Assembly (NCBI GenBank): GCA_026169045.1
Contig: JAPFDH010000081.1
Location: 1 to 43,618 of the forward strand
Origin: Lachnospiraceae bacterium
Lineage (GTDB): Bacteria > Bacillota > Clostridia > Lachnospirales > Lachnospiraceae
DNA length: 43,618 nucleotides
Direction of reading: 5' to 3'
Shown piece after piece: positions 3,872 through 43,618 of this stretch (positions are counted from its first letter, which is position 1; each line of letters begins with the position of its first letter). Below the pieces are notes generated by a model. That model was given only the letters and a program-made list of their open reading frames with translations, did not search any database and was not told the DNA's origin. The position numbers and the translations under genes are program-made.

Positions 3872-3882
3872 GAGAGAAAAAA

Positions 3883-4788: not shown

Positions 4789-4897
4789 GTTTATCGGAAG
4801 GTTATGGTATTGAATTATGACAGATAGGTGCAGAGAAAGAATATAGAAATTATCGGCATCTATCTGTTACAAGATAAATAGAAAGGAAGAAAGAGAT

Positions 4898-24501: not shown

Positions 24502-24593
24502 TGACGGATATAAGAATTACAACAAAAATTTCAAAAGATAGCAGAAGAAATTTTGCAGATGAGCATTGATTTTATGGATAGGTAAAGCAGATA

Positions 24594-27402: not shown

Positions 27403-28641
27403 ATGGCATATAACGAGCTGGTGAAGAATTTCAAGCGTATACGTGATTATATGAGAGAATTTTATGTGTATGGTTTTAAAAGCAGAGATGAGTTTATCCA
27501 AAAGAGTACGCGATCCTATGATGATGAACGCCGTCGTTTGGAAAGCTGGCTTGGTGATTATATGCAGTTTCGCCAGACTCCGGAAGGAAAAAATATATTT
27601 CTCTCTATTGATAGTCGACTGACGAAGCATAACCCATTGTTCAAAGCTTGGAAAACAAAAAGCTTTACGGATGGAGATATCACACTGCATTTTGTGCTTC
27701 TTGATATCTTGTCAGATCCGAATATCCGTATGACAACAGGAGAGATAACAGAACGCATAGATGAATATCTTTCTCAGTTTACAGAACCCAGAATGTTTGA
27801 TGAATCAACAGTAAGAAAGAAGCTTAAGGAATATGTTTCGCAGGGAATCTTAATTTCAGAGAAAAAAGGAAAGGTATTGTATTATCGAAGGGCAGAGAAT
27901 ATTCCGTTACCGGATAAGGATATGCTGGACTATTTTTCTGAGGTGCTTCCATGTGGTGTGATAGGATCTTTTCTGTTGGATAAGATGGAGCAAAGCAGTA
28001 GCCATTTTGCATTTAAGCATCATTACATAACCGGTACAATGGATACAGAGATTCTCTATTCCGTGTTTCTTGCAATAAGAGAAAAGCGTGGTATGACACT
28101 TGAAATAATCAACAGATACAATCATCGTATTACAGAAAATTATGTGATTCCGATTAAGGTGATGATAAGTGTCCAGAGTGGGCGGCAGTATCTCATGGCA
28201 TACACACCTCGATTTAATAGGATTACGCCGTACAGAACAGATAATATTATTTCTGCTAAACTAGATACGATCAGTGAACGTTTTGATGAGCTGCAAAGTA
28301 CATTTGAGAAGATGCTTCCGAATATGTGGGGAGTAAGTACAGAGGGAAGGACTGGAGCGAGAATCGAGCATGTGGAATTTACGGTTCATTATGCAGATGA
28401 TGAAAAGCATATTCGAAATCGATTGGAACGTGAAAAACGATGCGGTATTGTTGAGCATCTGGATCATAATACCAGCAGATTCTCGGCGGATGTATTTGAT
28501 GCCAGTGAGGTGATTCCATGGATCAGAACTTTTATCTGTAGAATCACAGAGGTCCATTTTTCAAATAAGGAGCTGGAAGAGCAATTTAAAAATGATATCA
28601 ATGATATGTATGCTCTGTATGGCATTGGAGGTGATGAGTAA
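27403..28641 (+). CDS. WYL-domain transcriptional regulator (wHTH plus WYL; PafB/BrxR-like architecture)
   Basis: wHTH-like block LLDILSDPNIRMTTGEITERI...VRKKLKEYVSQGIL. WYL-like block YVIPIKVMISVQSGRQYLMAYTPRFNRITPYRTDNII. Translationally coupled to the next gene (TAA-ATG adjacent). Confidence 0.55.
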   Translation: MAYNELVKNFKRIRDYMREFYVYGFKSRDEFIQKSTRSYDDERRRLESWLGDYMQFRQTPEGKNIFLSIDSRLTKHNPLFKAWKTKSFTDGDITLHFVLLDILSDPNIRMTTGEITERIDEYLSQFTEPRMFDESTVRKKLKEYVSQGILISEKKGKVLYYRRAENIPLPDKDMLDYFSEVLPCGVIGSFLLDKMEQSSSHFAFKHHYITGTMDTEILYSVFLAIREKRGMTLEIINRYNHRITENYVIPIKVMISVQSGRQYLMAYTPRFNRITPYRTDNIISAKLDTISERFDELQSTFEKMLPNMWGVSTEGRTGARIEHVEFTVHYADDEKHIRNRLEREKRCGIVEHLDHNTSRFSADVFDASEVIPWIRTFICRITEVHFSNKELEEQFKNDINDMYALYGIGGDE

Positions 28642-29547
28642 ATGATTTTCAGTGAACTTTATGGTGCGTATTACAATACGGTCGCAGCAATTCTGGCGGA
28701 AGCAGTTACTCATCCGGTTTCAGAAAAAAATATTGGAAATATTATCAAGAAATATGCTTTTTCAGAAAGTATATGGGCAATTTCTGATGCTATTAAGGAA
28801 GAAAGGTGGCAAATAGTAAAGGCAGATGGAACAACACCAATTACCAATAAACCATCTATGCCGCTTACAATTTTACAGAAAAGATGGTTGAAGGCAATTG
28901 GCTGTGATCCGCGATTAAAGCTTTTCGGAACGTTTGATTTTGATTATCCGGATGTAGAACCTCTTTTTCTGCCAACGGATTATATCATATTTGATAAGTA
29001 TGCAGACGGAGACGATTATACAGATGAACGATATATCTCCAATTTTCGGTTAATTCTCGATGCAGTAAGAAATCAGTATCCGTTGAAAATTGAAACCTTA
29101 AATAGAAAAGGAATGCAGATCAGCCAGGTGGTACTGCCGGAATATTTGGAATATTCGGAAAAAGATGATAAATTTAGATTGATCGGTGCTGGAAACCGAT
29201 TTGAAAGTACGATTAATCTTGGGCGTATTATCAGCTGTAAGCGGTATGAAAAATCATTGGAAATCACACAAGGAAAATGTAATTCTGCGCGATCATGCTA
29301 TGTTGTTTTTGAGCTAAAGGATGAAAGAAAGGCTTTGGAACGGGTGCTCCTTCATTTTGCTCATTTTAAGAAAGTTGCCAAACGCATAGAGGAAAATCGA
29401 TATTCCATAACTATTTATTATGATAGAGAAGATGAAACAGAGATCCTAATCCGTATCTTATCGTTTGGTCCGTTGATAAAGGTTACAGCCCCTGTGCATT
29501 TTATAGAATTAATGAAACAGAGATTATTGGAGCAAAAAAAGTTGTGA
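28642..29547 (+). CDS. Second WYL-domain protein (paralogous partner; PafC-like)
   Basis: WYL-like block QISQVVLPEYLEYSEKDDKFRLIGAGNRFESTINLGRIIS. Tight coupling to the upstream regulator. Confidence 0.45.
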   Translation: MIFSELYGAYYNTVAAILAEAVTHPVSEKNIGNIIKKYAFSESIWAISDAIKEERWQIVKADGTTPITNKPSMPLTILQKRWLKAIGCDPRLKLFGTFDFDYPDVEPLFLPTDYIIFDKYADGDDYTDERYISNFRLILDAVRNQYPLKIETLNRKGMQISQVVLPEYLEYSEKDDKFRLIGAGNRFESTINLGRIISCKRYEKSLEITQGKCNSARSCYVVFELKDERKALERVLLHFAHFKKVAKRIEENRYSITIYYDREDETEILIRILSFGPLIKVTAPVHFIELMKQRLLEQKKL

Positions 29548-29571
29548 GCATTCGTGTTCGCAACTTTTTTT
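29541..29571 (+). terminator. Rho-independent terminator after the WYL pair
   Basis: GTTGTGAGC-ATTCGT-GTTCGCAAC plus TTTTTTT. Confidence 0.65.
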
Positions 29572-29627
29572 CCGTGATAAAGGAAGACAGATTTTGTAAA
29601 ATAGCATTGTAATTACTTCTCAAAGGA

Positions 29628-29742
29628 TAAAGATGCTTACAGCAATTTTCAAGATATGTGATTATTTCTAAGAAAGAGTTCCTGATTGGTATTCAGGATA
29701 TTACCGGTGAGATCCTGGGTTTGTATTGAAAAAGCATCTTGT
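29628..29742 (+). ncRNA. Candidate Y-RNA-like structured ncRNA 1 (ends paired by a 9-bp stem)
   Basis: AAGATGCTT (29630-38) pairs with AAGCATCTT (29732-40). Internal hairpins CCTGA...TCAGG and CAGGAT...ATCCTG. ACAGCAA motif just inside the 5' stem. Possible promoter GTGATA-18-TAAAAT upstream. Confidence 0.35.
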
Positions 29743-29744
29743 AA

Positions 29745-29842
29745 TAAAGGCACCTACAGCAAAGTTGAATGAATAAGAGGTTTAAGCAAATGAGAATTAT
29801 CATTTTACGCGGGTTCGAATCCCACTTTAATGGTGCCTTGTG
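29745..29842 (+). ncRNA. Candidate Y-RNA-like (YrlA-type) ncRNA 2 with tRNA-like T-arm
   Basis: AAGGCACC (29747-54) pairs with GGTGCCTT (29832-39). The UA dinucleotide and ACAGCAAAG motif follow the 5' strand. Perfect tRNA T-loop GCGGGTTCGAATCCCAC at 29809-29825. Sits immediately upstream of the Ro60-like gene. Confidence 0.45.
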
Positions 29843-29872
29843 TTTATGTACTATGGAAAAGGAGAGACGCCT

Positions 29873-31363
29873 ATGCTGAATTTATTAAAACAGGAAGCAA
29901 ATATGACATTTACAGAAAATGGTGCTGTTACATACGAAACCAGCGGTTCCGATTGTATGGATTTATTTGCATCCATTGGTGCACTCAGACGAGAAAGCGA
30001 TGATGAAATAATTGCTCGTTTTGTTCGTGCATATACAGAAAATGCAGATATGGCAATGAAGCTTCTTTTCTTTGCCCGGGACATTAGAGGCGGATTAGGT
30101 GAGCGACGTGTGTTTCGTACCATTCTTACATGGCTTGCTGAAAATAAACCGGATTCCGTAAAAAAGAATATGTATTATGTCGCAGAGTATGGTCGCTATG
30201 ATGATTTGTTGGTTCTTCTGGATACGCCCTGTGAGAAAGAAATGCTTTCCATACTTCAAACGCAGTTTGAAAAAGACATGGAAGCGGTTGGAAAGAATGA
30301 AACGGTATCCCTATTGGCAAAGTGGTTGCCGTCAGTAAACGCATCCAATCAACAGACGATTCGAAAGGCAAAAAAAATTGCAAAGGCATTTGGTATGACG
30401 GATGCCGTTTACCGAAAAGCAATTACAGCACTTCGGGCAAGAATACATATTATCGAGAATAATCTTCGCCAAAAGGATTATTCTTTCGATTATGAGAAAC
30501 AGCCGTCCCGGGCGATGTTTAAATATAGGAAAGCATTCTTAAGAAATGATCGGGAAAGATATAGCGAATTTCTTACAAAAGTCAGTTCGGGTGAAGCAAA
30601 ACTCCATACTGACAATATATCTCCATATGAATTGGTTGAGCCATATCTGATAACCGATTGGGATTGGAATTCATCATCTTTTATGCGTGGCATTTCTCCG
30701 GAAGAGAAAGCTGCTTTGAATGCAACATGGAATGCGTTGCCGGATTTCGGAAGCAAAGAGGATGCGATTGCAATTATTGATACATCAGGGTCCATGTATT
30801 GTGACAGCAAGCCAATTCCGGCCGCTATTGCATTATCATTGGGATTATATTTTGCAGAACACAATAAAGGAAGGTTTAGAAATCATTTTATTGAGTTTTC
30901 AGCAAGGCCACAGTTGCTTGAAATAAAAGGTGAAACTTTTGCAGACCGTCTTCGTTACATAACAACATTTAATGAGATGGCAGATACAAATCTTGAAGCG
31001 GTATTTGATCTGATTCTGAACGCAGCCGTGAAGAATAGAATCCGTCAGGATGAAATGCCTGCTAAACTAATTATTCTTTCTGATATGGAGTTTAATTCCT
31101 GTGTGAAAAATGCTTCAGAAAGCAATTTTAATAGTGCAAAGAAAAAGTACACTGCGAAAGGGTATAAGCTTCCGGAAATCATTTTTTGGAACGTTGCCAG
31201 CAGAAACAGACAACAGCCGGTAACCATGAATGAGCAAGGTGTTGTACTGGTTTCTGGTGTGACACCGAGAATTTTTGAGATGGTTGCCGGAGGTAAGCTT
31301 TCTCCATATGCGTTTATGTTGGAAGTATTGGAAAGTGAGCGCTATGCTAAGATAGCAGCATAG
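29873..31363 (+). CDS. Ro60-like protein: TROVE/DUF2828-like N-terminal region plus C-terminal von Willebrand A domain with intact MIDAS
   Basis: MIDAS DTSGSM (IAIIDTSGSMY) with downstream T and LIILSD. N-terminus NGAVTYETSGSDCMDLFASIGAL, FARDIRGGLGERR. Start ATG 29873 after AAAAGGAGAG. Confidence 0.55.
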   Translation: MLNLLKQEANMTFTENGAVTYETSGSDCMDLFASIGALRRESDDEIIARFVRAYTENADMAMKLLFFARDIRGGLGERRVFRTILTWLAENKPDSVKKNMYYVAEYGRYDDLLVLLDTPCEKEMLSILQTQFEKDMEAVGKNETVSLLAKWLPSVNASNQQTIRKAKKIAKAFGMTDAVYRKAITALRARIHIIENNLRQKDYSFDYEKQPSRAMFKYRKAFLRNDRERYSEFLTKVSSGEAKLHTDNISPYELVEPYLITDWDWNSSSFMRGISPEEKAALNATWNALPDFGSKEDAIAIIDTSGSMYCDSKPIPAAIALSLGLYFAEHNKGRFRNHFIEFSARPQLLEIKGETFADRLRYITTFNEMADTNLEAVFDLILNAAVKNRIRQDEMPAKLIILSDMEFNSCVKNASESNFNSAKKKYTAKGYKLPEIIFWNVASRNRQQPVTMNEQGVVLVSGVTPRIFEMVAGGKLSPYAFMLEVLESERYAKIAA

Positions 31364-31403
31364 TGCTCCTAAAAAGGAGCCTCAAAAGGGGAAGGGTGAA
31401 ACG

Positions 31404-32681
31404 ATGATAGAGATAAAAGGAAAGAGGAATACTGCAATCTGTTATACAAACGTAATAGATGATGGAGCAATCGAACAAATCCGAAGAATGTGTGATTATA
31501 ATTTGACAGAAGGAAGTCGGGTAAGAATTATGCCGGATGTACATTCTGGAAAGGGGTGTACCATCGGTACTACTATGACGGTCGTGGATAAGGTTTGCCC
31601 CAATATTGTAGGAGTTGATATAGGATGTGGTATGTATACGGTTAAGCTGGAGGACAAAAAGCTTGACTTTGAACGACTCGATGAAGTATGTCATTACATT
31701 CCGTCTGGAATGAATGTCTGGGACGGCAGAATGGAACGATTTGATCTGACAGCTCTTCGCTGTTATCGGTCTTTGAAAGACACACGAAGATTGGAACGTT
31801 CATTGGGAACGTTAGGCGGAGGAAATCATTTTATTGAGGTGGATAAGGACTCGGATGGAAACTTATACCTTATCATCCATTCCGGAAGCAGAAATCTGGG
31901 AAAACAGGTAGCAGAAATTTACCAACAGCTTGCGATCGATCTTCATACTGGTAAGGAGGATTATTTTTCCAGACGTGATGCAATTATCTGTTCTTTTAAA
32001 GCAGAAGGACGACGATCTGAGATACAAAATGCATTGAAAGAGCTGGAAAAAGAGTATACGTCACAAGTACCGGATGTCCCGGAAGATCTTTGCTGGTTAT
32101 ATGGTTCCTTTTTAGAGGATTATCTTCATGATGTGGGAATTTGTCAGAGATTTGCCAGAAGAAACAGAGAACGCATGGCAGAAATTATAGTAGAACGAAC
32201 CGGAATGAGGGATGCAGAGGCGTTTCATACGGTTCATAACTATATTGATACAAAGGAAAGGATTCTTCGAAAAGGTGCTATTGCAGCCCATATCGGAGAA
32301 AAGGTATTGATTCCAATTAATATGCGTGATGGTTCTATTCTTGCTGTAGGAAAAGGAAATCCTGAATGGAATTATTCCGCGCCCCATGGAGCCGGACGAG
32401 TTATGTCAAGATCAATGGCTAAACAAACCATAAATATGGATACATATCGGGAATCGATGAAAGGTATCTATACAACATCAGTAAATGAAAGTACTATTGA
32501 TGAATCTCCAATGGTTTATAAATCATTGGAAGATATTATTGATGTTATTGGCGAATCGGTAGAAATCATTGATATGATCAAGCCCATATACAATTTCAAA
32601 GCGGCAGATGATGATTCTACATGGAGGAAAAGAAAACGGTTGACTGGGGAGAACGAAATGGGGCCGTTGCAAAATAGATGA
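31404..32681 (+). CDS. rtcB: RtcB-family RNA 3'-phosphate/2',3'-cyclic phosphate ligase
   Basis: RtcB metal/GTP-site motifs GGGNHFIEV, PDVHSGKGC and SAPHGAGR. SD GGGGAAGGGTG. Confidence 0.85.
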   Translation: MIEIKGKRNTAICYTNVIDDGAIEQIRRMCDYNLTEGSRVRIMPDVHSGKGCTIGTTMTVVDKVCPNIVGVDIGCGMYTVKLEDKKLDFERLDEVCHYIPSGMNVWDGRMERFDLTALRCYRSLKDTRRLERSLGTLGGGNHFIEVDKDSDGNLYLIIHSGSRNLGKQVAEIYQQLAIDLHTGKEDYFSRRDAIICSFKAEGRRSEIQNALKELEKEYTSQVPDVPEDLCWLYGSFLEDYLHDVGICQRFARRNRERMAEIIVERTGMRDAEAFHTVHNYIDTKERILRKGAIAAHIGEKVLIPINMRDGSILAVGKGNPEWNYSAPHGAGRVMSRSMAKQTINMDTYRESMKGIYTTSVNESTIDESPMVYKSLEDIIDVIGESVEIIDMIKPIYNFKAADDDSTWRKRKRLTGENEMGPLQNR

Positions 32682-34135: not shown

Positions 34136-34630
34136 ATGCGCTGGCATAGACAGTCTATACTCGTTTCAACAATCTGTCATCCTATAACATCGTTGCTTCG
34201 TTTTGGTATGGCATACTTTATATTTTTGATAATTATCACAGTGCTCTCACGGTTTATACCTTTCTTTGCTGTATTTATATATACAAAAATAGGTACGACG
34301 ATACATATAGTACTTTCTATCGTTGTAGGAATGTTATGGGCGAGAAAAGTTGTAGAAGACAAAGAGATGTATGGTTATAATGATTATAAACCATCACCTG
34401 AGTTGAAAGAACAGTGGCGGCGAGAGAATCAAAGAATGTTTAATGAACATATGATGTATAAGGAAATGGAACGAAGAGCGAAAGAGGAAGAAGCTGCAAG
34501 ACAAAGACAACAGTACTACGATAACCTCGCACAATCTGCGTATTGGAAGTCGCGAGATGCTCATTATCGTGGAGACTCTGCTTCTGAAAACTACTATCAC
34601 GATGAGTATCGAAAATGGAAAAATATGTAG
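34136..34630 (+). CDS. Small membrane protein, paralog B (same family as 32731..33237)
   Basis: SD GGAGGTG. Paralogous to the divergent upstream gene. Confidence 0.6.
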   Translation: MRWHRQSILVSTICHPITSLLRFGMAYFIFLIIITVLSRFIPFFAVFIYTKIGTTIHIVLSIVVGMLWARKVVEDKEMYGYNDYKPSPELKEQWRRENQRMFNEHMMYKEMERRAKEEEAARQRQQYYDNLAQSAYWKSRDAHYRGDSASENYYHDEYRKWKNM

Positions 34631-34668
34631 AAGAAAAAAGGAAATGCTGACTTGGAAAGGTATTTACT

Positions 34669-34690
34669 GTGTAGCAACTACACTATTTTT
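34669..34690 (+). terminator. Rho-independent terminator
   Basis: GTGTAG-CAA-CTACAC plus TATTTTT. A second hairpin GGCAGTACTCT...AGAGTATTGCC lies near 34720-34750. Confidence 0.5.
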
Positions 34691-34852
34691 GAAAGAACTT
34701 TGATATAAAAGAACGTAAGCGGCAGTACTCTTAAACAGAGTATTGCCGTTTGCAGCATATGGATAAATAGATTTCTAAGTAAATATCTATGCGTTATAAA
34801 GTGACGAAAGACGCTGAAAACAGTTACTCATTATTTCGTATGTTGAAAATAA

Positions 34853-35014
34853 TGTCGCCACACCTATTGTTCCAATATGGCAAAAAGTGGTATAACCCCA
34901 AAAAATTTGCAGTATCTTATGGGTCATGCTGATGTAGGAATGACCTTAAATATTTGTACATATCTGGGATATGAGGATGTGAAAGAAGAGGTAAGAAAAA
35001 TATGTAATCTCTGA
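34853..35014 (+). pseudogene. 3' remnant of a Tn916-family tyrosine integrase (C-terminal 54 codons only)
   Basis: Translation CRHTYCSNMAKSGITPKNLQYLMGHADVGMTLNICTYLGYEDVKEEV matches the C-terminus of the intact integrase at 42056..43297 (CRHTFCSNMAKSGMNPKTLQYIMGHSDISVTLNVYTHVGFEDAEKEM). No upstream continuation. Confidence 0.75.
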
Positions 35015-35185
35015 AGTATGAAAATGTATTACTGGAATTTACTACTTACTGAGATAAATTTATTACTTTTTTACTACTTTTGAGGTCAAAGATATGCTAA
35101 AATATGCCAGAGAAATAAAAAAACAAAAAAGCTGAAAATCCTTTAAAAATCAAGGAAATACGCAGAAAATAAGGAGTTTTTGGAT

Positions 35186-35221
35186 ATGATAAAAATACTT
35201 TTTGTGTGCCACGGCAGGTGA
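35186..35221 (+). other. Truncated mini-ORF MIKILFVCHGR* (N-terminus of an LMW-PTP/ArsC-like protein) inside the left att-like unit
   Basis: SD AAGGAG plus ATG. Near-identical mini-ORF MIKVLFVCHGTL* at 43458-43496 in the right att-like unit. Confidence 0.5.
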
Positions 35222-35277
35222 TGCATTGAGCACTGCAAACTCTTTAAAATCAAGGATTTTTTAAAATACGACTTGAA

Positions 35278-35297
35278 TTTACGACACTTTTACGACA
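35278..35297 (+). repeat. Arm-type direct repeats (TTTACGACA x2), left arm
   Basis: GAATTTACGACACTTTTACGACAGAT. Matches GAATTTACGACAGAATTTACGACAGAT at 43308-43328 and degenerate TTTACTAC copies at 35036-35085. Confidence 0.55.
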
Positions 35298-35336
35298 GAT
35301 AAAGCCAGGCTATGATAAACGTGTTATATTATAACA

Positions 35337-36296
35337 ATGTGGGGGGGGAGTATTACGAAGATTGAAGATTTAGTGATAAAAATGCCAACAGAGGAAATCG
35401 ATGAAAAGGATTGGAATCTTGAAGAATGGAAACAAAAGTATCCGATGGATTACTATAAAGCTTTGCGAATTTTGTCAGAAGCGAGTAACGGAGTTGTTGC
35501 TACAGAGATTTTTAAAGCTATATACCAAATAACACGTTTGCATGTACCTGATGTTTTGTTCAAATATTATTCATTGTCAAATGATGAGGAATTAAATAAG
35601 AAAAAATTTCAAACCTTAAGTGAGGGAAAACTTTTTATGTCAGAGATTAAGGATTTTAACGATCCATTTGATGGTAAAAGTTTTTTCTACAATCCAAAAA
35701 GATTGGAAGATATCGATAGGTTACGTGTTCATAAAGGAAGATTGATAGATGATTTTACTGTGTTTATAAGGGGAACATGTTTTACAGCTAATGGAGTTCA
35801 GTCAATGCCGATGTGGGCTCATTATGCCAACAATCATAAAGGTTTTTGTGTTTCTTATGATGTAAAAGAAAATTTGGGACTCAAAAGTAATATATTCCCG
35901 ATACAATATACAGAAGAAAGGCTAGACGTAACTGCATTGATGCGTAAGCATGCAGAATTAATTTGCGATAAAATTGATGAAAATATACGACGAGGAGAAA
36001 AGATAACGCAATATGATGATTTGACAATAATTTATATGGCATTATTACTATATAATGTTAAGCATATATCGTGGAATTATGAGAATGAATTCAGATATTT
36101 TGTGCCATCAAATGCAAGTGGGATTCCATATGCTAAAGCGATTCCTAGAGCAATTTACATAGGAATGAATTGCGAGGAAAGACACAAAAAAGCACTAGAA
36201 GATATAGCAGACTATTGGGATGTTCCTTTGTATCAAATGGGAATGGATGAATGTTCAGAAAAATATGAATTAGTTGCAACTAGAATGCGGAGCTGA
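35337..36296 (+). CDS. DUF2971-family protein
   Basis: LFKYYSL...LSEGKLFMSEIKDFNDPFDG matches the DUF2971 core (KY.SL...fNDPfE). Start codon uncertain (G-rich SD GGGGGGGGAG with no nearby ATG; possibly GTG 35376 or ATG 35382). Confidence 0.55.
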   Translation: MWGGSITKIEDLVIKMPTEEIDEKDWNLEEWKQKYPMDYYKALRILSEASNGVVATEIFKAIYQITRLHVPDVLFKYYSLSNDEELNKKKFQTLSEGKLFMSEIKDFNDPFDGKSFFYNPKRLEDIDRLRVHKGRLIDDFTVFIRGTCFTANGVQSMPMWAHYANNHKGFCVSYDVKENLGLKSNIFPIQYTEERLDVTALMRKHAELICDKIDENIRRGEKITQYDDLTIIYMALLLYNVKHISWNYENEFRYFVPSNASGIPYAKAIPRAIYIGMNCEERHKKALEDIADYWDVPLYQMGMDECSEKYELVATRMRS

Positions 36297-36761
36297 TAGC
36301 GTAGAATGTAACATAAAAAATACGGTACGTGATGCAAGTTTAGAAGCTACATTATACGAGCATCAGAAAAAGATTAAGTGCATCGAAAAAATATACTTGT
36401 AATCATTTCTAAAGACATACTATATACAGGAAGCGTATTATTATATGAAATAGAAGAAGCCCTTGATGTTTAGGAAATGTGTTTTCCTATTGTATATCCG
36501 GAATCTAGTTTTAGGTGATCATCTTTGGCATTATCTGGTTGATGTGAATGAACAGGCACTAGCAAGATTGAATATGCTCGTGAAACTGATACAGGAAGTA
36601 GAGTGTATGATGGAAATTAAAGGTCATTGGTAATAGATTTGAAGGATGAAAAATATTTGTAACAGGCTGGAAGAAATTGTGATAATATTTTTTACACAAG
36701 GGAATGAAAGTAATAAACGATTTATGGGGCTACAAAACTACGTTAAAAGAAATAGAGGAAA

Positions 36762-38213
36762 ATGATGATCAAAATTATAAAATGCAAGCAATGGCGGGCA
36801 CGAAAGAATACAATAGTACTTCATTATGACAACTGGGATGATTATGGATATAAGACAACATATCGTATTAATTATTATGATAAAGATGGAAATTCTGTTT
36901 GGGAAAGTAGTATTCAAATTTATTGTACAAGATTGGATGAAGACGGTTCCGGAGGAGGCAAGGTAGATGAATATTTACCAAGTGAAATTGCAAAATTGGA
37001 TGATTCATTCTGTTCACTTGGTTGTGACATGAATTTTTATTCGGGATTAAAAAAAGCTTTGCCAAAAGATTATTTGGATATTTTAAACAGATTAAATGAT
37101 TTGGCCTATAATGAAAAACGATGGAATCAATTCAAGAAATATACCGGAGTCCAAAAGTCGCTATTAAGATCTAGTAGTTCAATTAAAGCAAGAGAAGAAG
37201 CATTCGCTATATTAGAAAATAATTTTATTAAAGAAAAAAATCTTTCTTTTTCGTATAGAACTCGTATTCCATATAGTGATATCATAGTTTCATTGAATTT
37301 TTTGTTTAATAAAAAGGCGGATCTTCCACATAGAATCAACGCAATTGTGGGAAAAAACGGAACGGGTAAAACACATATTCTTAATAATTTAGCAGAAGAT
37401 TTGAGCGGTTTCAAACTTGAAGAATTTGATGATAATGCATTTGAAAGAGGGAAAAGGCCATCTTTTGATAAAGTGATTTCTGTATCTTACAGTGCATTCG
37501 ATCCATTTAAGAAATTGAAAGGCCAAAATTCATTGAATAGTTATGTTTATTGTGGAATACAATCAGAAAAAGGCACATTGAAACTTAACGAGATACAAGA
37601 TAATTTTTGGAAGTCTTTAGAAACTATAAAGAAAAGGGATAGATACGAACAGTGGAAAAGAATAATTACAGAGTTATTTGCTGAAGAGAATTATAATATA
37701 ACTTCACAAATTGATGAATCTAGAATGAGAGATATTAATTGGAGCTCTGGACAAAATGTATTAATATCGTCTATGACAGAGGTTGTTGCAAAAATTGATA
37801 AGGAATCAATTATTCTATTTGATGAACCAGAACTACATCTTCATCCAAATGCTATAGCGAATGTTATGCGAATGTTTAATAAAATTCTTGAAGAATTTAA
37901 TTCATACGCAATTATAGCGACACACTCGCCGATTATTTTGCAAGAGATTCCTTCTAATAATATTATTGTATTAGAAAGAATTGATAACCAGCCCTTTGTC
38001 AGGAGACCTGAAATCGAGTGCTTCGGCGAAAACATTTCGCTCATTACTAGAGATATTTTTGATGTAACTAGTAAGGAAAGTTATTATCAAGCCTTTTTTT
38101 TAAAAATGAAGGAAACTGGAAAAACAAAAGAACAAATAGAAAAATTGTTTGAGTATAATTTGGGATTAAATGCACTTATTTATCTGGAAACATTATACAA
38201 GCAGGAGAAATGA
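36762..38213 (+). CDS. ptuA: Septu PtuA-like ABC-type (AAA_15/21) ATPase
   Basis: Walker A IVGKNGTGKTH. Walker B/D-loop ILFDEPELHLHPN (DEPExHLHP signature of OLD/PtuA/GajA-class ATPases). Final TGA overlaps the ATG of the next gene. Confidence 0.55.
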   Translation: MMIKIIKCKQWRARKNTIVLHYDNWDDYGYKTTYRINYYDKDGNSVWESSIQIYCTRLDEDGSGGGKVDEYLPSEIAKLDDSFCSLGCDMNFYSGLKKALPKDYLDILNRLNDLAYNEKRWNQFKKYTGVQKSLLRSSSSIKAREEAFAILENNFIKEKNLSFSYRTRIPYSDIIVSLNFLFNKKADLPHRINAIVGKNGTGKTHILNNLAEDLSGFKLEEFDDNAFERGKRPSFDKVISVSYSAFDPFKKLKGQNSLNSYVYCGIQSEKGTLKLNEIQDNFWKSLETIKKRDRYEQWKRIITELFAEENYNITSQIDESRMRDINWSSGQNVLISSMTEVVAKIDKESIILFDEPELHLHPNAIANVMRMFNKILEEFNSYAIIATHSPIILQEIPSNNIIVLERIDNQPFVRRPEIECFGENISLITRDIFDVTSKESYYQAFFLKMKETGKTKEQIEKLFEYNLGLNALIYLETLYKQEK

Positions 38214-38951
38214 ATGATTAATTACATAGAAAACACAGAAATAAATGATGAAGGTGTATTCAAAGACATAATAAAATATAAGCACGAACCTGGAAAAACA
38301 AAATTAAAAGATTGTAAAAAAGAAATTTTTGAAGATTATTTAATTTATAAACAAAATTCCTGTGCCCTTCAGAAAGTTATACCTGATATTCGTATACCTG
38401 ATGAATCTAAAAAAGAACTGATTAAAACATATAACAGTAATCCAAGTGCTTTGCAAAAATCTAAGTTGATGATAAAGAAAAATTTATCTAACATATTGAG
38501 AGCAAAATGTCCCTATTGTTTAATTTCTGCGCATAGCACATTTGATCACTATTTGGACAAGTCTAAGTATCCAGAATATGCATTGTTTTCAAGCAATCTT
38601 ATTCCATCATGTGCGGAGTGCAATTCTTTGAAAAGTGATTTTTTATGTGATAGTAAAGGCAATAGATTATTTATTAATTTTATTTTTGATGAGCTTCCTG
38701 CTTATCCGTTTTTAAAGTATATTCTTTCTATAGAAGGAGAGAAAATTGTACTTAAGAAAGTATATCTAGATTTTGATGATAATGAACCTAAAAAACAAAT
38801 AATCAAAAATCATTTTAAAAAATTAAAGTTAATTCCTCGACTTGAAGACCAATTTGATGTTGCTATATCCACGATTATAGAAGAATTTCATGAATATAAC
38901 TATAGTACTCGAGAGGTAAAGGAAGTCTTGACAAAAAAAATGAGGGCTTAG
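38214..38951 (+). CDS. ptuB: Septu PtuB-like HNH endonuclease
   Basis: His-Me finger / HNH: CPYCLISAHSTFDHYLDKSKYPEYALFSSNLIPSCAECNSLKSD (CxxC...DH...N...CxxCN). Confidence 0.55.
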   Translation: MINYIENTEINDEGVFKDIIKYKHEPGKTKLKDCKKEIFEDYLIYKQNSCALQKVIPDIRIPDESKKELIKTYNSNPSALQKSKLMIKKNLSNILRAKCPYCLISAHSTFDHYLDKSKYPEYALFSSNLIPSCAECNSLKSDFLCDSKGNRLFINFIFDELPAYPFLKYILSIEGEKIVLKKVYLDFDDNEPKKQIIKNHFKKLKLIPRLEDQFDVAISTIIEEFHEYNYSTREVKEVLTKKMRA

Positions 38952-39354
38952 GAGAAGACACGAGGAATTAATAATTGGGAAACTTGTATCTTGCGAGCTA
39001 TCATTCAGAATAATGAAGTGTTACAGTATTTGAGCAAAAATGAAAAATAGATAAATCGAAATATTAGTAAATATAATGGGAATGTAATATCATAAATTAA
39101 AAGGATTTAAAAACCTCTGAAATGCCTATAAGAAATGGTGTTCCAGGGGTTTTTGTGTCCTTGGATAAGCACGCAAAGTATCGTAAATTACCAAATTTTA
39201 TGTATTAGTTTAGAGAATAGCTTGATTTTCAATTACCTGATTTTTTGATCCAGACTACGATATAAATGCCATATTTTGGATACTTTTTGCGGGAACGATT
39301 ATGAAATTGGAGATGCTATGATTAATTGGTAAAACACAAGAAGGAGGTATTAAC

Positions 39355-40521
39355 ATGGCATCAATCGTTCAACGTAACAAAAGCTTTAGCGTAGTTTACA
39401 ATATTTACGATGGAGACAAGAAAAAACAAAAGTGGGAGACCTATCATTCTTATAAAGAGGCTCTACATCGAAAAGAGCAAGTAGAGATCATTTATCAGAA
39501 GAAACAGCTGAAATATCGTTCAGGAACTCTGGCACAGTTTTTGAATGAATATGTGGAACTATATGGGCACGTTCATTGGGCTTGCTCCACCTATAGCAGC
39601 AATACAGCGCTGATTCGGAATTATATTATTCCGTTCTTTGGAACCATGCAACTTCATGAGTTTAGTCCCAAAGTGATTGCAGTAATCTATAGTCAACTAC
39701 AAAGAAATCCGAAAATCACGCCACAGCTTATGAATAATATTCATAAACTATTACATAGTGCATTTGAACAAGCTGTACTATGGGAATATCTAGATTACAA
39801 TCCTTTCAAAAAAGCCAATCTTCCGAAAATATATTCGCAGGGGATTGCAATGCTGTCCTTGGATCAGATTAGAATACTATTGCAAAATTGCACGGAGCCG
39901 ACGCTAACGTTAGCTGTTCACTTAGCTTTTTCGGGTTCTTTACGAAAGGGAGAAATTTTAGCTCTTACTTGGATTGACATAGACTTCGATAAGGGGACGG
40001 TGTCGGTCAGCAAATCCTTGAAGCGTATCCGAAAGGATGCTGTCCAGGTGCTAAACGGTAAAGACATTCTTTATCAATTTCCGGCTATATTTGATGAAGG
40101 GCGTACCGTTGTTGTATTGAAACGGCCAAAAACTCATGCCAGTGTCCGGACGGTGTATTTACCGGAATATGTAATGAATCTGCTTTGGAACGTAAAGAAA
40201 GAACAAAGAGCTTTAAAAAGAGGAATACCGGAGCTTGTTTTACGTTATGGAAATGGAAGACCTCTTCAAGAAGAAACGCTTCCTCGTTTGTTGGAAAAAC
40301 AGCTGCTAGCGCTTGGGCTTCCCAAAGTTACTTTCCATAGCTTGCGTCACAGTAGTATAACATATAAATTAATACTTACTGGTGGAAACATCAAAGCAGT
40401 TCAAGGTGATTCTGGTCACGCACAGGCGGAGATGATCACAGAACGTTATGGTCATATTATTGATTCTTGCCGCAAGCAGTGTTCAAAAGATTTTGAAGAA
40501 GACTTTTATAAGAGCCTGTAA
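39355..40521 (+). CDS. Tyrosine-type site-specific recombinase/integrase with AP2-like N-terminal arm-binding domain
   Basis: N-terminus KSFSVVYNIYDGDKKKQKWETYHSYKEA (Arm-DNA-binding-like). C-terminal catalytic residues HSLRHSSIT...ERYGHI (R..H..R..Y). SD AAGGAGG. Confidence 0.8.
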   Translation: MASIVQRNKSFSVVYNIYDGDKKKQKWETYHSYKEALHRKEQVEIIYQKKQLKYRSGTLAQFLNEYVELYGHVHWACSTYSSNTALIRNYIIPFFGTMQLHEFSPKVIAVIYSQLQRNPKITPQLMNNIHKLLHSAFEQAVLWEYLDYNPFKKANLPKIYSQGIAMLSLDQIRILLQNCTEPTLTLAVHLAFSGSLRKGEILALTWIDIDFDKGTVSVSKSLKRIRKDAVQVLNGKDILYQFPAIFDEGRTVVVLKRPKTHASVRTVYLPEYVMNLLWNVKKEQRALKRGIPELVLRYGNGRPLQEETLPRLLEKQLLALGLPKVTFHSLRHSSITYKLILTGGNIKAVQGDSGHAQAEMITERYGHIIDSCRKQCSKDFEEDFYKSL

Positions 40522-40525
40522 AATG

Positions 40526-40555
40526 AGTCGTCTGATGAAAATCAGGCGACTTTTT
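40526..40555 (+). terminator. Rho-independent terminator after integrase 1
   Basis: AGTCGTCTGA...TCAGGCGACT plus TTTTT. Confidence 0.7.
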
Positions 40556-40834
40556 ACAGTAGGATGGAACATCTCCCTCCTAAGGATATGGAGTATCGTT
40601 TGAATTTAGTCCAGTTAGCAAAACAGGAGGTAAAAGTTTGAAACAAATAAGTAGAGGACTTTGGAAGAGATAAGTTTACGGGATACGTTATGCGCCACTC
40701 ACATCCACGTGTCTTGTAGTGTGTCAGTCTAATTAAAGAAATCATATCAGAAGGCAATAGGAATAGAAACGCGAAAGTAGCACAACGGCTTTCATGACGC
40801 ATTTGTGCCTTTCGCAGAAAGGCGGAAAATAAAT

Positions 40835-41623
40835 ATGATAAAATTCACTAAACTTCATGATTTGGCTGCATATTTGAAGCAAGCAGCCGGCACATATCTT
40901 CAGTATGATTATGAATTTCTATATCAGGAACTCCGTGCAAGATATGAACAACAGGTTATGGAGGCATTTTGGGAAAAACATCCGGGATGGAGTATCGTAA
41001 CAGACGATGCTGCCTGCTATATGTATTTATTTCGAAACTGGTCGTTAAGTAAAGAAGCAACCCAAAATGCCCGCCAGTTTATAGATCTTGCAAAAGATCT
41101 TTTTGAAAATTATGTAGAGTGTAGAGAATTATTCTTTACCACAAATATGGTGGAGAATGTTATGCGAGTTGTTGAACAGGTATATGATTTTTCAAAATAT
41201 GTTCTGAAAAATAGGCATATGTTTATTTTCTTGTTTCCATCAAAATATCGGTATGAAGATTCATTTTGCCGTTGCTTTAAAGGAAAAAATGATATGAATT
41301 ATGCAGACATTTATATACTGACTCCAAAGAAAGATAATCAAGCTACTCCGCAAAGCATTCTACTACATGAGCTAGGACATATGGTTAATTTGGTGTTGAC
41401 TGGTGATGTAGGTAAACTACCGGAAGATTTTGCGGTAATTACATCATTATTAAATCTGAACTTTAATAAAAATGACCAAAATGAATTCTTTGCTCACTGT
41501 TTTGCCATGAGTTTACTAAGTGAAACGGAGCTTGTTCCATTTGACCCGTTCCCTATGGTGCCCCAAACACATAAAATCCTATTTCGTTTCTATTTCACAT
41601 ATAAAATCAACAATCTTAAGTGA
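40835..41623 (+). CDS. Hypothetical protein with HExxH motif (putative zinc metallopeptidase; ImmA/IrrE-like motif HELGH)
   Basis: LLHELGHMVNL. Start ATG 40835 preferred over GTG 40805. A hairpin GCCTTTC-GCAG-GAAAGGC overlaps the weak SD. Confidence 0.5.
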   Translation: MIKFTKLHDLAAYLKQAAGTYLQYDYEFLYQELRARYEQQVMEAFWEKHPGWSIVTDDAACYMYLFRNWSLSKEATQNARQFIDLAKDLFENYVECRELFFTTNMVENVMRVVEQVYDFSKYVLKNRHMFIFLFPSKYRYEDSFCRCFKGKNDMNYADIYILTPKKDNQATPQSILLHELGHMVNLVLTGDVGKLPEDFAVITSLLNLNFNKNDQNEFFAHCFAMSLLSETELVPFDPFPMVPQTHKILFRFYFTYKINNLK

Positions 41624-41717
41624 CTTGCCAAAGAAAGCAGGTCACTTTTCTTTTGAAGACGGACAGGCAAAAAAACAGAATTTCGGTACATACGACAAAA
41701 AAAGGAGGTAATTGCCT

Positions 41718-41951
41718 GTGATAAAAGAAAGAGAAGTTGTTCATACAGATAAATACGAGATTCCGGTGTGGCGGAAGTATACCTTAAGTGTACAGGAAGC
41801 GGCCAAATATTTTCGTATTGGAGATAAAAAACTGAAAAAACTGATCGATGAAAATCCGAATGCCGAGTTCATTCTCTGGAATGGATCACGTCCTCAGATT
41901 AAGCGGAAATTGTTTGAGCAGTTTATTGACGAAAAATTATCTGCCATATAA
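41718..41951 (+). CDS. xis: Excisionase, Xis-Tn916 family
   Basis: IPVWRKYTLSVQEAAKYFRIGDKKLKKLIDENPNAEFILWNGSRPQIKRKLFEQFID closely parallels Tn916 Xis ([28 protein letters not shown]...IQIKRKQFEKIID). GTG start after AAAGGAGGT. Confidence 0.8.
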   Translation: MIKEREVVHTDKYEIPVWRKYTLSVQEAAKYFRIGDKKLKKLIDENPNAEFILWNGSRPQIKRKLFEQFIDEKLSAI

Positions 41952-42055
41952 ACGAAAAAAGTACACGATGGATTCAGAGCCGGGTTTATGGTATGATAGA
42001 TGCGTATCATAGCTTGGCTCTTTTCTATGGCAGGCAGATAGAAAGGAGAAATGGA

Positions 42056-43297
42056 ATGTCAGAAGTAAGAAGGGACCATAAAGGCCGGAAATTACTTATG
42101 GGAGAGAGTCAGCGGAAAGACGGGAAATATGAATACAAGTATCAGGATGCACGTGGCAAAAGAAAGACGGTGTACAGTTGGAGACTGACTCCTTCAGACC
42201 GGATGCCGGCAGGAAAACGTAATGATATTTCCTTAAGAGAAAAAGAAAAACAGATTCAGAAGGATTTAAACAGCAATATCATACCGGATGGCGGTGATTA
42301 TACAGTCTTGGATCTTGTAGAAAAGTATATCCGGACGAAGACAGGCGTTCGCCATAATACTAAAGCAAATTATAAGTTTGTGATTAATGTGATCAAGAAA
42401 GAGGCATTTGGTCAGAAGCGTATCGATAAAGTCAAAGTATCGGACGCGAAAGAGTGGCTGATTAAAATGCAGCAGATGGACGGGCGTGGCTACAGTTCCA
42501 TACATACGATCCGAGGCGTTGTAAGACCGGCTTTTCAGATGGCGGTGGATGATGATTTACTGATAAAGAATCCTTTTGAGTTTCAGCTTAATACGGTTGT
42601 CGTGAATGACAGTGTCACAAGAAATGCTCTGACACCAAAGCAGGAAAGAGACTTTTTAGAGTTTGTAAAGAATGATAAGCATTTCAGCAAATATTATGAT
42701 GGAATTTATATTCTGTTTAAAACCGGGCTCCGTATTTCAGAATTTGTTGGGTTAACAAAGAAAAATCTGGATTTTGAGAACAACAGGATTATTGTGGATC
42801 ATCAGTTGCAAAGGACAAGAGACATGAGGTATCTCATTGAGGATACCAAAACAGAAAGCGGTATGCGAATGGTTCCTATGACACCGGAAGTCAAGGAGTG
42901 TTTTCAGAACATTCTTGCCAACAGAAAGAAACCAAGGATTGAGCCGATGGTCGATGGGTATAGCGGATTTCTGTATCTGGACAAAAATGGGAAGCCTATG
43001 GTGGCGTTGCACTGGGAAAAGTATTTCCAGCATATTCGTGAGAAGTACAACAAAATGTACAGAGTACAGATGCCGCTTGTTACGCCACATGTTTGTAGGC
43101 ATACCTTTTGCAGCAATATGGCCAAGTCAGGAATGAATCCAAAGACGCTGCAATACATTATGGGGCATAGTGATATTTCGGTAACACTGAATGTTTATAC
43201 ACATGTAGGATTTGAAGATGCGGAGAAAGAAATGCAAAGATTAACAGATACAAAGTCTGAGAAGTCTACGGCGTACCGTAAAATATCTGTGTCGTAA
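42056..43297 (+). CDS. int: Tyrosine integrase, Int-Tn916 family
   Basis: N-terminus MSEVRRDHKGRKLLMGESQRKDGKYEYKY (Tn916 Int MSEKRRDNRGRILKTGESQRKDGRY...). Catalytic C-terminus HVCRHTFCSN...LQYIMGHSDISVTLNVYTHV. Start ATG 42056 after AAAGGAG; the track ORF starts earlier without an SD. Confidence 0.85.
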   Translation: MSEVRRDHKGRKLLMGESQRKDGKYEYKYQDARGKRKTVYSWRLTPSDRMPAGKRNDISLREKEKQIQKDLNSNIIPDGGDYTVLDLVEKYIRTKTGVRHNTKANYKFVINVIKKEAFGQKRIDKVKVSDAKEWLIKMQQMDGRGYSSIHTIRGVVRPAFQMAVDDDLLIKNPFEFQLNTVVVNDSVTRNALTPKQERDFLEFVKNDKHFSKYYDGIYILFKTGLRISEFVGLTKKNLDFENNRIIVDHQLQRTRDMRYLIEDTKTESGMRMVPMTPEVKECFQNILANRKKPRIEPMVDGYSGFLYLDKNGKPMVALHWEKYFQHIREKYNKMYRVQMPLVTPHVCRHTFCSNMAKSGMNPKTLQYIMGHSDISVTLNVYTHVGFEDAEKEMQRLTDTKSEKSTAYRKISVS

Positions 43298-43307
43298 ATC
43301 TTTTGAA

Positions 43308-43328
43308 TTTACGACAGAATTTACGACA
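43308..43328 (+). repeat. Arm-type direct repeats (GAATTTACGACA x2), right arm, 11 nt after the int stop
   Basis: Perfect tandem 12-mer repeat seen in the sequence. Confidence 0.55.
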
Positions 43329-43618
43329 GATGATGGCTAAAATAAGCAGATTTATGCGAAGTTATACTGTTATAAGATGAAAATGCCTCTGCCGCGGAAA
43401 TGCCGGAAAGTGGCGTAAAATCAAGGGAAATCAGCATTTTAAAGGAGTTTAAGAGATATGATAAAAGTTTTGTTCGTGTGCCACGGCACTCTTTGAAGAA
43501 CTCCTTAAAAAGTCAGTAAAATCAATACTTGGAAGGTATTTGTGTGGAAGAAATAACCCGAAAATAACCCATAGATTTTTGTGTGAGTGTTACAAGATAA
43601 ATAATTATAATTTAGGGA

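Follow-up and report, generated by a model that had tools for sequence, protein, structure and literature searches.

For Tn916 and Tn1549, many AT-rich sites serve as insertion targets, and the coupling sequences are non-homologous (PMC5812530); according to the passage of that article citing Hinerfeld and Churchward (2001), the excisionase Xis binds an end of Tn916. The streptococcal integrative and mobilizable elements (IMEs), for their part, integrate in the ends of guaA, tatD, ebfC, rpsI, and rpmG (PMC5357655). Several elements may accumulate side by side at one attachment (att) site, with att repeats between them and with defective remnants, which process is known as accretion (PMC9585547, PMC5704250, PMC5357655); and defence systems are reported to be pervasive on chromosomally integrated elements (PMC10201445). 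The present analysis concerns a stretch of 43,618 nt from a Lachnospiraceae bacterium (assembly GCA_026169045.1, contig JAPFDH010000081.1; hereafter, the window), near the right edge of which an element with a Tn916/Tn1549-type integrase, E2, lies between the fossil right end of another element, E1, and the first nucleotides of a third, E3. We are highly confident that the 5' end of a gene for a low-molecular-weight protein-tyrosine phosphatase (LMW-PTP) is the bacterial attachment site (attB) of a large family of integrative elements, that E1, E2, and E3 are stacked at that site with the gene restored, and that the TAAAATCAAGG motif repeated around each gene start is not the crossover.

The phosphatase gene start as an attachment site

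Contigs of the same species were recovered through the 164-aa protein encoded at 34136-34630 and comprised the loci (prefixed L) L083, of 184 kb, L084-L086, and L088-L090; the Macro-domain protein, used in the same way, yielded no contigs. The gene order of L083 is that of the window—rhodanese, YgjP, His_Phos, Macro, an Rce1-like protein, two unknown proteins, DUF2828/DUF7788, RtcB, more genes, and the 164-aa gene—which synteny assigns the window up to position 34852 to the chromosome and not to an element. In L083 the 164-aa gene is followed directly by an intact LMWPc gene of 157 aa, and the same succession is found in L086. The alignment of these two contigs to the window spans the intergenic DNA, a shorter integrase fossil, the TTTACTAC repeats, AAAAATCAAGG, AAGGAG, and ATG, up to ...GTGTGCCACGGCA, beyond which L083 and L086 read ATATTTGCCGTTC... 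(NICRSPMAE...) whereas the window reads GGTGATGCATTG.... An earlier sequence-only reading of the region had seen in two mini-ORFs of the window the 5' end of such a phosphatase gene, had placed the att site there, and had proposed that an intact gene be sought in relatives in order to rebuild attB. The comparison bears this out: the same start continues as the intact 157-aa LMWPc gene at the empty sites of the conspecific L083 and L086, the flank running straight into that gene.

The L083 protein, MIKILFVCHGNICRSP...DPWYTG..., has a CHGNICRS P-loop, a DPWY loop, and a match to PF01451, and the corresponding protein of a relative of E3, L131, matches LMWPc at E = 1.5e-21. Because the NCBIfam ArsC models score far under their cut-offs, we read the target gene from its sequence as an LMW-PTP and not as ArsC. 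Scans of the region for transfer RNA (tRNA) genes and against Rfam gave no match, so that the att site is not of the tRNA or transfer-messenger RNA type and is not a known RNA element.

Other contigs of the species hold other elements at the same site. L084 has an E2-type left arm, with the TTTACGACA repeats, and a different cargo (KAP NTPase, QatB, TatD, and an MmeI-like enzyme), and L085 and L088-L090 have an element with another class of arm (ACTACACCA). The cargo of L085 consists of TnpV, Fic, a type I restriction-modification (R-M) system, and GmrSD; L088-L090 share its left part (TnpV and Fic), to which L088 and L089 add the start of a type I R-M gene. With L083 and L086 empty and these occupants differing, the locus is polymorphic among the conspecific contigs, being either empty or filled by one of several distinct elements, mostly with defence cargo.

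The same arrangement recurs far beyond the species. A scan of the GTDB species representatives for relatives of the E2 integrase (Int) returned 467 stretches, the best 80 of which, at 72-98% amino-acid identity, were analysed; their hosts are mainly Lachnospiraceae, Oscillospiraceae, Christensenellaceae, and other Clostridia, plus one Merdibacter metagenome-assembled genome (MAG). An LF[VI]CHG core follows the integrase at 182-380 nt (median 213) in 75 of the 80 loci; 62 of these run from the Int-bearing right end into an intact LMW-PTP gene (~150-160 aa), as the sequence-only reading would have it, and 13 into a truncated start and then the arm of another element. The five exceptions include two loci without downstream sequence and one with a truncated int. 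The docking site is used across the Clostridia and in a few other Bacillota, in at least 75 of the best 80 loci among the 467 Int relatives. As for Mini-ORF 2 of the window, its start continues as an intact LMW-PTP gene in L002, L003, and L005, and near-identical starts do likewise in L004 and L006.

Int was also encountered with an LMW-PTP junction in bins that bear the labels of taxa outside the Bacillota, namely, in two Gastranaerophilales MAGs (L027 and L076) and in an Odoribacter MAG (L056). Either the mobile DNA was binned wrongly in these cases or it was transferred from one phylum to another.

We consider it very improbable that the repeated unit is instead a conserved chromosomal repeat or a regulatory leader of the phosphatase, unrelated to element ends and with the integrase fragment there by coincidence. 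The segment 34631-35216, with one motif copy and the fossil, is indeed present in all the conspecific contigs, even at the empty sites, and it is now chromosomal and probably drives LMW-PTP expression; but the intact elements L077 and L078 have a right arm collinear with it (L047 having the same arm), the nucleotides 35217-35255 are missing from the empty sites and belong to E2, and the architecture is the same after the integrases of 75/80 loci from many families.

Regarding the crossover that these attachment sites imply, the empty sites align to the window as far as 35216 and many other loci exactly as far as 43488, and the left arms of ~15 element types all start right after ...CACGGCA. 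In elements with both ends visible, the left and right attachment sites (attL and attR) are identical over 16 bp in L003 (attL at 1157, attR at 8090), over 13 bp in E2 of the window and in L006 (attL at 6256, attR core at 9865), and over 10 bp in L004 and L047, those 10 bp being TGCCACGGCA; in L004, an attL of ...TTCATCTGCCACGGCA followed by GG faces an attR of ...TTCGTGTGCCACGGCA followed by AC, with only TGCCACGGCA in common. Breakpoints directly after TGCCACGGCA and a minimum identity of 10 bp together point to strand exchange within TGCCACGGCA, the Cys-His-Gly codons of the P-loop, which placement is a bound and not a map of the cleavages. In some left arms the ~10 nt past the crossover resemble those of the gene (TTATTTGCAG in L085 vs. 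ATATTTGCCG in the gene), which mimicry would fit a core-type half-site at that position.

The sequence-only reading had placed the crossover elsewhere, taking the 10-13-bp TAAAATCAAGG repeats for the cores and framing each element as int / arm repeats / core / 90-bp unit / core, which proposal we now find scarcely credible. Two copies 100 bp apart do flank each mini-ORF at both junctions, and the motif is genuinely enriched near element ends across loci; yet L083 and L086 hold the upstream copy and diverge from the window only after TGCCACGGCA, 61 nt downstream, the sequence upstream of attL in L003 and L004 is without any motif, what attL and attR share is 10-16 bp of the gene start, terminating in GGCA, and not the motif, and the downstream copy always travels with the incoming left arm at +32. 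Every homology breakpoint falls instead after ...TGCCACGGCA, at 35216 and at 43488. Since the empty site has a single, upstream motif copy and the downstream one is part of the left arm of the incoming element, the supposed 90-bp unit is a chimera composed of the right arm of element n, the gene start, and the left arm of element n+1. The integrase fossil, mini-ORFs, motif copies, and arm repeats described in that reading are nevertheless all present in the window; their positions are collected in Table 1, for which the annotation sources were Pfam, PADLOC (for defence genes), NCBIfam, and sequence comparison with the PDB.

Table 1. Coordinates in the window of the stacked elements, their attachment sites, and their genes (RBS, ribosome-binding site).
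Feature	Position	Strand	Remarks
164-aa gene	34136-34630		Chromosomal; conspecific contigs
Intergenic chromosome, outside any element	34631-34852	+	(Near-)identical in L083-L086, empty or occupied
E1 fossil, C-terminus of a Tn916/Tn1549-type integrase, 53 codons + stop	34853-35014	+	Translation, alignment
E1 right-arm arm-type repeats	35038-35077	+	TTTACTAC 35038-35045, 35070-35077; TTTATTAC 35059-35066
Tandem GATATGCTA / AATATGCCA, 10-bp period, E1 right arm	35091-35109	+	Candidate excisionase sites
AAAAATCAAGG motif, E1 right-arm copy	35145-35155	+	ATCAAG begins 68 nt before the crossover boundary
Mini-ORF 1, MIKILFVCHGR then stop	35186-35221	+	LMW-PTP start cut after codon 10 by E2; AAGGAG RBS 35171-35176
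Core copy 1, TGCCACGGCA, attL of E2, P-loop Cys-His-Gly codons	35207-35216	+	Empty-site homology ends after 35216
Element E2, 8,272 bp	35217-43488	+	34-nt direct repeat at bounds; absent from L083, L086
TAAAATCAAGG motif, E2 left-arm copy	35245-35255	+	ATCAAG begins +32 from the crossover boundary
E2 left-arm arm-type repeats	35263-35297	+	TTTACGACA 35278-35286, 35289-35297; degenerate AATACGACT 35263-35271
E2 cargo, DUF2971 / PDC-S31 protein	35337-36296	+	Pfam, PADLOC
E2 cargo, PDC-M01A/PtuA ATPase (Septu-like pair)	36762-38213	+	Pfam; PADLOC PDC-M01A E = 4.9e-145
E2 cargo, PDC-M01B/PtuB HNH nuclease (Septu-like pair)	38214-38951	+	Pfam, PADLOC
Second tyrosine recombinase, 388 aa, E2 backbone	39355-40521	+	Pfam Phage_integrase + SAM_3
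Tn916-type Xis of E2	41712-41951	+	PF09035, E = 5.3e-26
Intact Int of E2, 413 aa	42056-43297	+	PF02920 E = 6.5e-31; PF00589 E = 1.6e-30
E2 right-arm arm-type repeats TTTACGACA	43290-43298; 43308-43316, 43320-43328	-; +	
TAAAATCAAGG motif, E2 right-arm copy	43416-43426	+	ATCAAG begins 69 nt before the crossover boundary; kept in L002-L018 right arms
Mini-ORF 2, MIKVLFVCHGTL then stop, E2-borne replacement start	43458-43496	+	Cut after codon 10 by E3; AAGGAG 43442-43447
Core copy 2, TGCCACGGCA, attR of E2 + attL of E3	43479-43488	+	Many locus alignments end at 43488
E3 left arm, runs off the window	43489-43618	+	TAAAATCAAT 43517-43526; arm repeats AAATAACCC 43551-43559, 43562-43570

The three stacked elements

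Within the range searched for direct repeats (34600-43618), the top pair, at 35183-35216 and 43455-43488, is 34 nt long, 85% identical, and spaced by the 8,272 bp of E2, and a 29-nt gene-start pattern has two matches in the window vs. zero expected by chance. E2 is an integrative element with its own Int and Xis, bounded by att repeats, and consists, in order, of the left arm, the defence cargo, a second tyrosine recombinase, a 272-aa protein, Xis, Int, and the right arm. Its Int matches the 'Int protein' of PDB 6EMY/6EN0, which we take to be the Tn1549 Int, at E = 1.7e-91 with roughly half of the aligned residues identical, and the N-terminus matches the Tn916 Int-N structures 1BB8/1TN9 at E of about 1e-21 to 4e-21. 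Arm-type repeats, putative Int sites whose classes vary between lineages, stand at both ends, two plus one degenerate copy at the left and three at the right. Both ends match the elements of L003 and L004, L006 shares the left arm and the right end, and the TTTACGACA left-arm repeats are kept in L003, L004, L006, and L084.

PADLOC recognized PDC-S31 and PDC-M01A/B (PtuA/PtuB-like) in E2, by which prediction the cargo looks like a defence module consisting of PDC-S31 and a Septu-like pair. Domain scans of the E2 ORFs detected no relaxase, conjugation, or coupling-protein domain. The position of the second recombinase is kept in L001 (172-1338) and L003 (~3835-5230), and a resolvase, an atypical relaxase, and a relic of a nested element are the candidates for its role. 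At ~40,700 the identity to L003 jumps from 73% to 96%, which step suggests the boundary of a mosaic module. That E2 is mobile and capable of excision at present is something that we infer from its sequence.

To the left of E2, the translation of the fossil is CRHTYCSNMAKSGITPKNLQYLMGHADVGMTLNICTYLGYEDVKEEVRKICNL, i.e., CRHTYCSNMAKSG...RKICNL and a stop, and aligns to the C-terminus of the intact Int. The fossil has ~68-70% nucleotide identity to the intact int of L077, L078, and L041; judged by the alignment, its catalytic-Tyr motif would have decayed to NICTY, vs. NVYTH in E2 and NTYTH in L077. The whole of E1 (34853-35216) amounts to ~360 bp of right end, with attL and all genes lost, and is truncated at 34853 against chromosomal DNA. 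The fossil occurs in every conspecific contig in at least two different deletion alleles: that of the window keeps 53 codons and misses ~11 nt at the 5' edge, and that of L083 keeps ...PPHVCRHTYCS and has lost the next ~187 nt. From this distribution we regard the E1 remnant as co-opted in the whole species as the resident upstream region of the gene. No further gene-start pattern or core copy that could mark the left end of E1 was found anywhere in the window; near-matches on the minus strand at 24564 and 24671 were treated as chance, the DNA there being chromosomal and syntenic with L083.

In L077 and L078 the intact integrase has the AATTTACTACTTTTTTTACTACTTTTGAGGTCAAAGATATGCCAA arm after it, and L047 has the same arm with no integrase relative upstream. 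In the collinear arms of the window and of L077 and L078, the order is the int C-terminus, the TTTACTAC repeats, ATATGCCA repeats, the motif, a Shine-Dalgarno sequence, and the ATG; by this collinearity, TTTACTAC is the own arm repeat of the E1 lineage, separate and intact in L077, L078, and L047, and not, as had been supposed, a degenerate TTTACGAC.

The region of lower GC at 26.5-34.8 kb, with RtcB and its neighbours, had been a candidate for element 1 and was rejected, the entire block being conserved in L083 upstream of the empty site. The chromosomal cassette at 27403-32681 (3283-8552 in L083) encodes unknown proteins of 412 and 301 aa, DUF2828/DUF7788, and an RtcB RNA ligase; its GC content is below that of the flanks, it is conserved in L083, and it resembles an RNA-repair or defence-like module.

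Of E3, at the other end of the stack, the window holds the first 130 nt only, which are identical in 130/130 positions in at least 25 metagenome contigs. More than 50 distinct contexts precede the E3 left arm in metagenome contigs, its distance from the core being 67 nt in every case; upstream sequence of sufficient length was present in 57 contigs, 14 of which have a full Int directly upstream and 5 an Int fragment, so that tandems and E1-like fossils are common. The complete or near-complete relatives L131 and L123 encode a single-stranded-DNA-binding protein (SSB), DUF3847, a MobA/MobL relaxase (E ~1e-80), a primase-helicase, Xis (adjacent to Int in L131, as in E2), and Int, with an aminoglycoside-2''-adenylyltransferase-like gene as cargo in one and an IS91-type transposase in the other. 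Through the mobilization genes of these relatives, E3 would be an integrative mobilizable element of the MobA/MobL type. L131 ends in a rebuilt LMWPc gene.

E3 is itself polymorphic: L002, whose Int protein is identical to that of E2 (99.7% nucleotide identity over 1,564 nt), continues into the intact gene without any E3, and the independent assembly L001 reproduces the E2/E3 junction. The proposal in the sequence-only reading that elements had inserted in tandem and that the older copy had decayed agrees with the core copies standing between the arms of E1, E2, and E3 and with the 13 genomes in which a truncated start is followed by a next element. The order of accretion would be such that the newest element lies next to the gene, which order fits with the leftmost E1 being a fossil in all conspecifics and the rightmost E3 being polymorphic.

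Might the E2/E3 tandem be an assembly chimera, caused by the collapse of reads over the 34-nt repeat? The short-read contigs L001 and L002 do break ~20 nt after the core; but L001, from a different sample and assembler, repeats the E2/E3 junction exactly up to its own end, tandems of the same type occur in 13/75 genome loci and 14/57 metagenome contigs, including isolate genomes and contigs of the polished 184-kb class, and L097 has two E3-like elements in tandem. We hold the chimera to be highly improbable and keep to the tandem as real. In L097 the tandem is direct, with core offsets of -67 and +3779 from the E3 arm motif and a first element of ~3.8 kb. L001 and L002, both Logan short-read contigs with an Int protein identical to that of E2, end 12-20 nt past the TGCCACGGCA core; assemblies break systematically at the att repeat, and such islands will often be fragmented in MAGs.

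The TAAAATCAAGG motif and the element arms

In the window alone the 11-mer TAAAATCAAGG is not significant, its 4 matches (with at most one mismatch) comparing with 2.2 expected and 14/100 shuffles reaching 4. In a set of 100 non-redundant right arms, AATCAAG is the top-enriched 7-mer (37 observed vs. 1.3 expected), with a peak 60-70 nt before the crossover; and in 8 of 23 non-redundant left arms, which belong to four arm-repeat classes and are in other respects dissimilar, ATCAA[GT] stands exactly at +32, with near-matches there in several others. The right-arm copy in E1, AAAAATCAAGG, is present in all conspecific contigs, the empty sites included. The (AG)TAAAATCAAGG motifs are internal to the elements, between the core and the arm-type sites on both arms, at offsets of about -68 and +32. 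The left-arm motif was also considered as a relic of gene sequence, which notion was rejected because only the first ~10 nt after the crossover are gene-like (L085) and not the motif region.

By analogy with the lambda-type attP and with Tn916, where Xis binds the element ends, the motif is probably a site for an accessory protein that gives the recombination complex its shape, be it Xis or some nucleoid or bending protein. The right arms also carry, between their arm-type repeats and the TAAAATCAAGG motif, tandem repeats of (G/A)ATATGC(C/T)A with a period of 10-11 bp, two copies in E1 and 3-4 in L047 (~2130-2175), and TATGCCA and GTTATGC are among the enriched right-arm 7-mers; such ATATGCCA-like repeats are plausible candidates for excisionase sites, and at least as good a candidate for Xis as the TAAAATCAAGG motif.

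The main alternative for the motif is a promoter -10 element (TAAAAT), serving the rebuilt phosphatase gene in the right arm and the cargo in the left. In favour of this role, the element must bring expression signals for the displaced gene, L020-L028 have a TGnTATAAT-like sequence at the equivalent place, and the E3 left arm scans as TTGAAG-18-TAAAAT; against that, however, the scan finds no acceptable -35 at 16-18 nt in the right arms of E1 and E2 or in the left arm of E2, the spacing to the candidate -35 varies from 12 to 21 nt between lineages, the conservation extends 3' of TAAAAT (ATCAAGG) beyond the needs of a -10, and the exact offset of +32 fits the geometry of recombination better. 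Since the consensus scans yielded no coherent -35/-10 pair where E1 and E2 have the motif, we set the promoter aside as our reading of the motif and keep it as a rival only, unlikely though still of some weight, and prefer that of the accessory-protein site.

The proposed mechanism and its relation to known systems

In the mechanism that we propose, the integrases are site-specific relatives of those of Tn916 and Tn1549, and their attB is the 5' end of the LMW-PTP gene, at the codons of the CX5R P-loop. The right, integrase-proximal end of an element carries, in order, the arm-type repeats of Int, tandem 10-11-bp ATATGCCA-like repeats, (AG)TAAAATCAAGG, AAGGAG, an ATG with 10 codons (MIKxLF[VI]CHG), and the core. 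Upon integration, this copy would be exchanged for the start of the resident gene, so that the phosphatase gene would stay intact, with the displaced old start stranded as a dead mini-ORF at the left junction, attL. As integration takes place in the 5' end, the element must supply the RBS and probably the promoter. At the right junction, attR would rebuild a complete attB-like core, through which a next element can enter, and a head-to-tail stack would grow with the oldest element furthest from the gene. In attP, one motif copy would stand on either side of the core, the two forming direct repeats and lying nearer to the core than the arm-type sites. The E2 circle would have the junction ...GATATGATAAAAGTTTTGTTCGTGTGCCACGGCA/GGTGATGCATTGAGCACTGC..., and the chromosome after the loss of E2 would read ...ATACTTTTTGTGTGCCACGGCA/CTCTTTGAAGAACTCC...; beyond the right edge of the window we would expect an E3-type backbone, a right arm, and then ATG..LF[VI]CHGNICRSPMAE... 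as an intact gene of ~155 aa.

Several points weigh against this account. The junction of L010 (11403-11560) is atypical: the start borne by the element reaches ...GGCAATATTTGCA (...CACGGCAATATTTGCA), and after it come 64 nt of upstream DNA that looks native and a second, complete gene start (MIKVAFCCHGNICRS...). Such a structure would point to either a secondary event or a crossover located further 3', and the simple scheme does not cover every event. Tn916/Tn1549-type integrases tolerate heterology in the overlap, so that the 10-bp minimum bounds the crossover and does not map it exactly. The circular attP junction of E2, looked for in all the fetched loci and in viral contigs, was not found. 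The right flank lies outside the window, and the intact gene downstream of E3 is deduced from relatives (L131). Finally, the motif occurs in only about a third to half of the non-redundant arms and is absent from some clades, L020-L028 having a TATAAT-like sequence instead, and shared ancestry of the arms could inflate its conservation.

We also entertain, at somewhat less than even chances, a wider proposal: that these elements make up a very large and undescribed superfamily of the gut Clostridia, in which an integrase of the Tn916/Tn1549 type has turned strictly specific for the universally conserved catalytic P-loop codons, in which each element swaps in its own promoter, RBS, and N-terminus, in which modules for defence, resistance, and mobilization stack, and in which an accessory site not recognized before, (AG)TAAAATCAAGG, with fixed positions in both arms of attP, serves an architectural protein encoded by the element or by the host.

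The locus defines a precise and re-usable docking site, the P-loop codons of an LMW-PTP, for small integrative elements that ferry defence systems, an aminoglycoside-nucleotidyltransferase-like gene, and mobilization modules. Knowledge of the true boundaries allows a clean annotation of islands at which short-read assemblies break, and explains why integrase fossils and dead MIKxLFVCHG mini-ORFs are met with upstream of phosphatase genes. These integrases furthermore offer a natural comparison for the gain of sequence specificity by the Tn916/Tn1549 type, and the pair of Int and att could become a broad-host-range tool for single-copy integration in gut Clostridia.

In comparison with known systems, the right arm (arm repeats, tandem ATATGCCA repeats, a fixed motif, and the core) and the left arm (the core, the motif, and arm repeats) are analogous, as far as the sequence alone tells, to a lambda-type attP, in which arm-type Int sites, Xis sites, and the bending-protein sites H2 and H' surround the core; unlike in that system, the motif is present here as two direct repeats whose distances from the core are asymmetric. 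The consensus of the integration host factor (IHF) is WATCAANNNNTTR, to which AATCAAGGATTTT bears a partial likeness in some of the left-arm copies only, those of the right arm not fitting, and which likeness we take as a lead only. To our knowledge, the Firmicutes generally lack IHF.

As in defence islands on integrative elements, E2 carries PDC-S31 with PtuA/PtuB, and the conspecific alleles carry Qat-like, MmeI-like, type I R-M, GmrSD, and Fic genes; what is new with respect to those islands is the specific hotspot locus only and not the kind. E1 (as a fossil), E2, and E3 stacked at one att site likewise resemble the accretion among integrative and conjugative elements (ICEs), IMEs, and their decayed derivatives, the cis-mobilizable elements (CIMEs), in the Firmicutes, though a classical CIME keeps both att sites whereas E1, without attL and genes, is a right end of ~360 bp only. 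With the site-specific ICEs and IMEs of the Firmicutes the present elements share a tyrosine integrase, a conserved housekeeping target, a repeat that is the duplicated end of the gene, the intactness of that gene, and a variable cargo (PMC5357655); unlike those gene-end elements, they integrate in the 5' end of an LMW-PTP gene, at the catalytic P-loop codons. A search of the literature for LMW-PTP, ywlE, or a phosphatase as an att target found no report in what was searchable, which coverage is incomplete and constitutes weak evidence of novelty; an LMW-PTP target thus seems unreported. The kind of mechanism, site-specific integration with replacement of a gene end plus accretion, is well known, and no concept is changed by it.

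The recombination module itself is like that of Tn916 and Tn1549, in which a heterobivalent tyrosine integrase is combined with a Tn916-type excisionase, with an Int composed of an N-terminal arm-binding domain (PF02920) and a catalytic domain (PF00589), a Xis of PF09035 directly upstream, and 9-bp arm-type direct repeats on both arms. Unlike Tn916 and Tn1549, the present elements are small, at 4-8 kb, and lack conjugation genes; and, instead of the low specificity of those transposons for AT-rich sites with 6-7-bp coupling sequences, 75/80 of the relatives here sit at one GC-rich 10-bp core, TGCCACGGCA.

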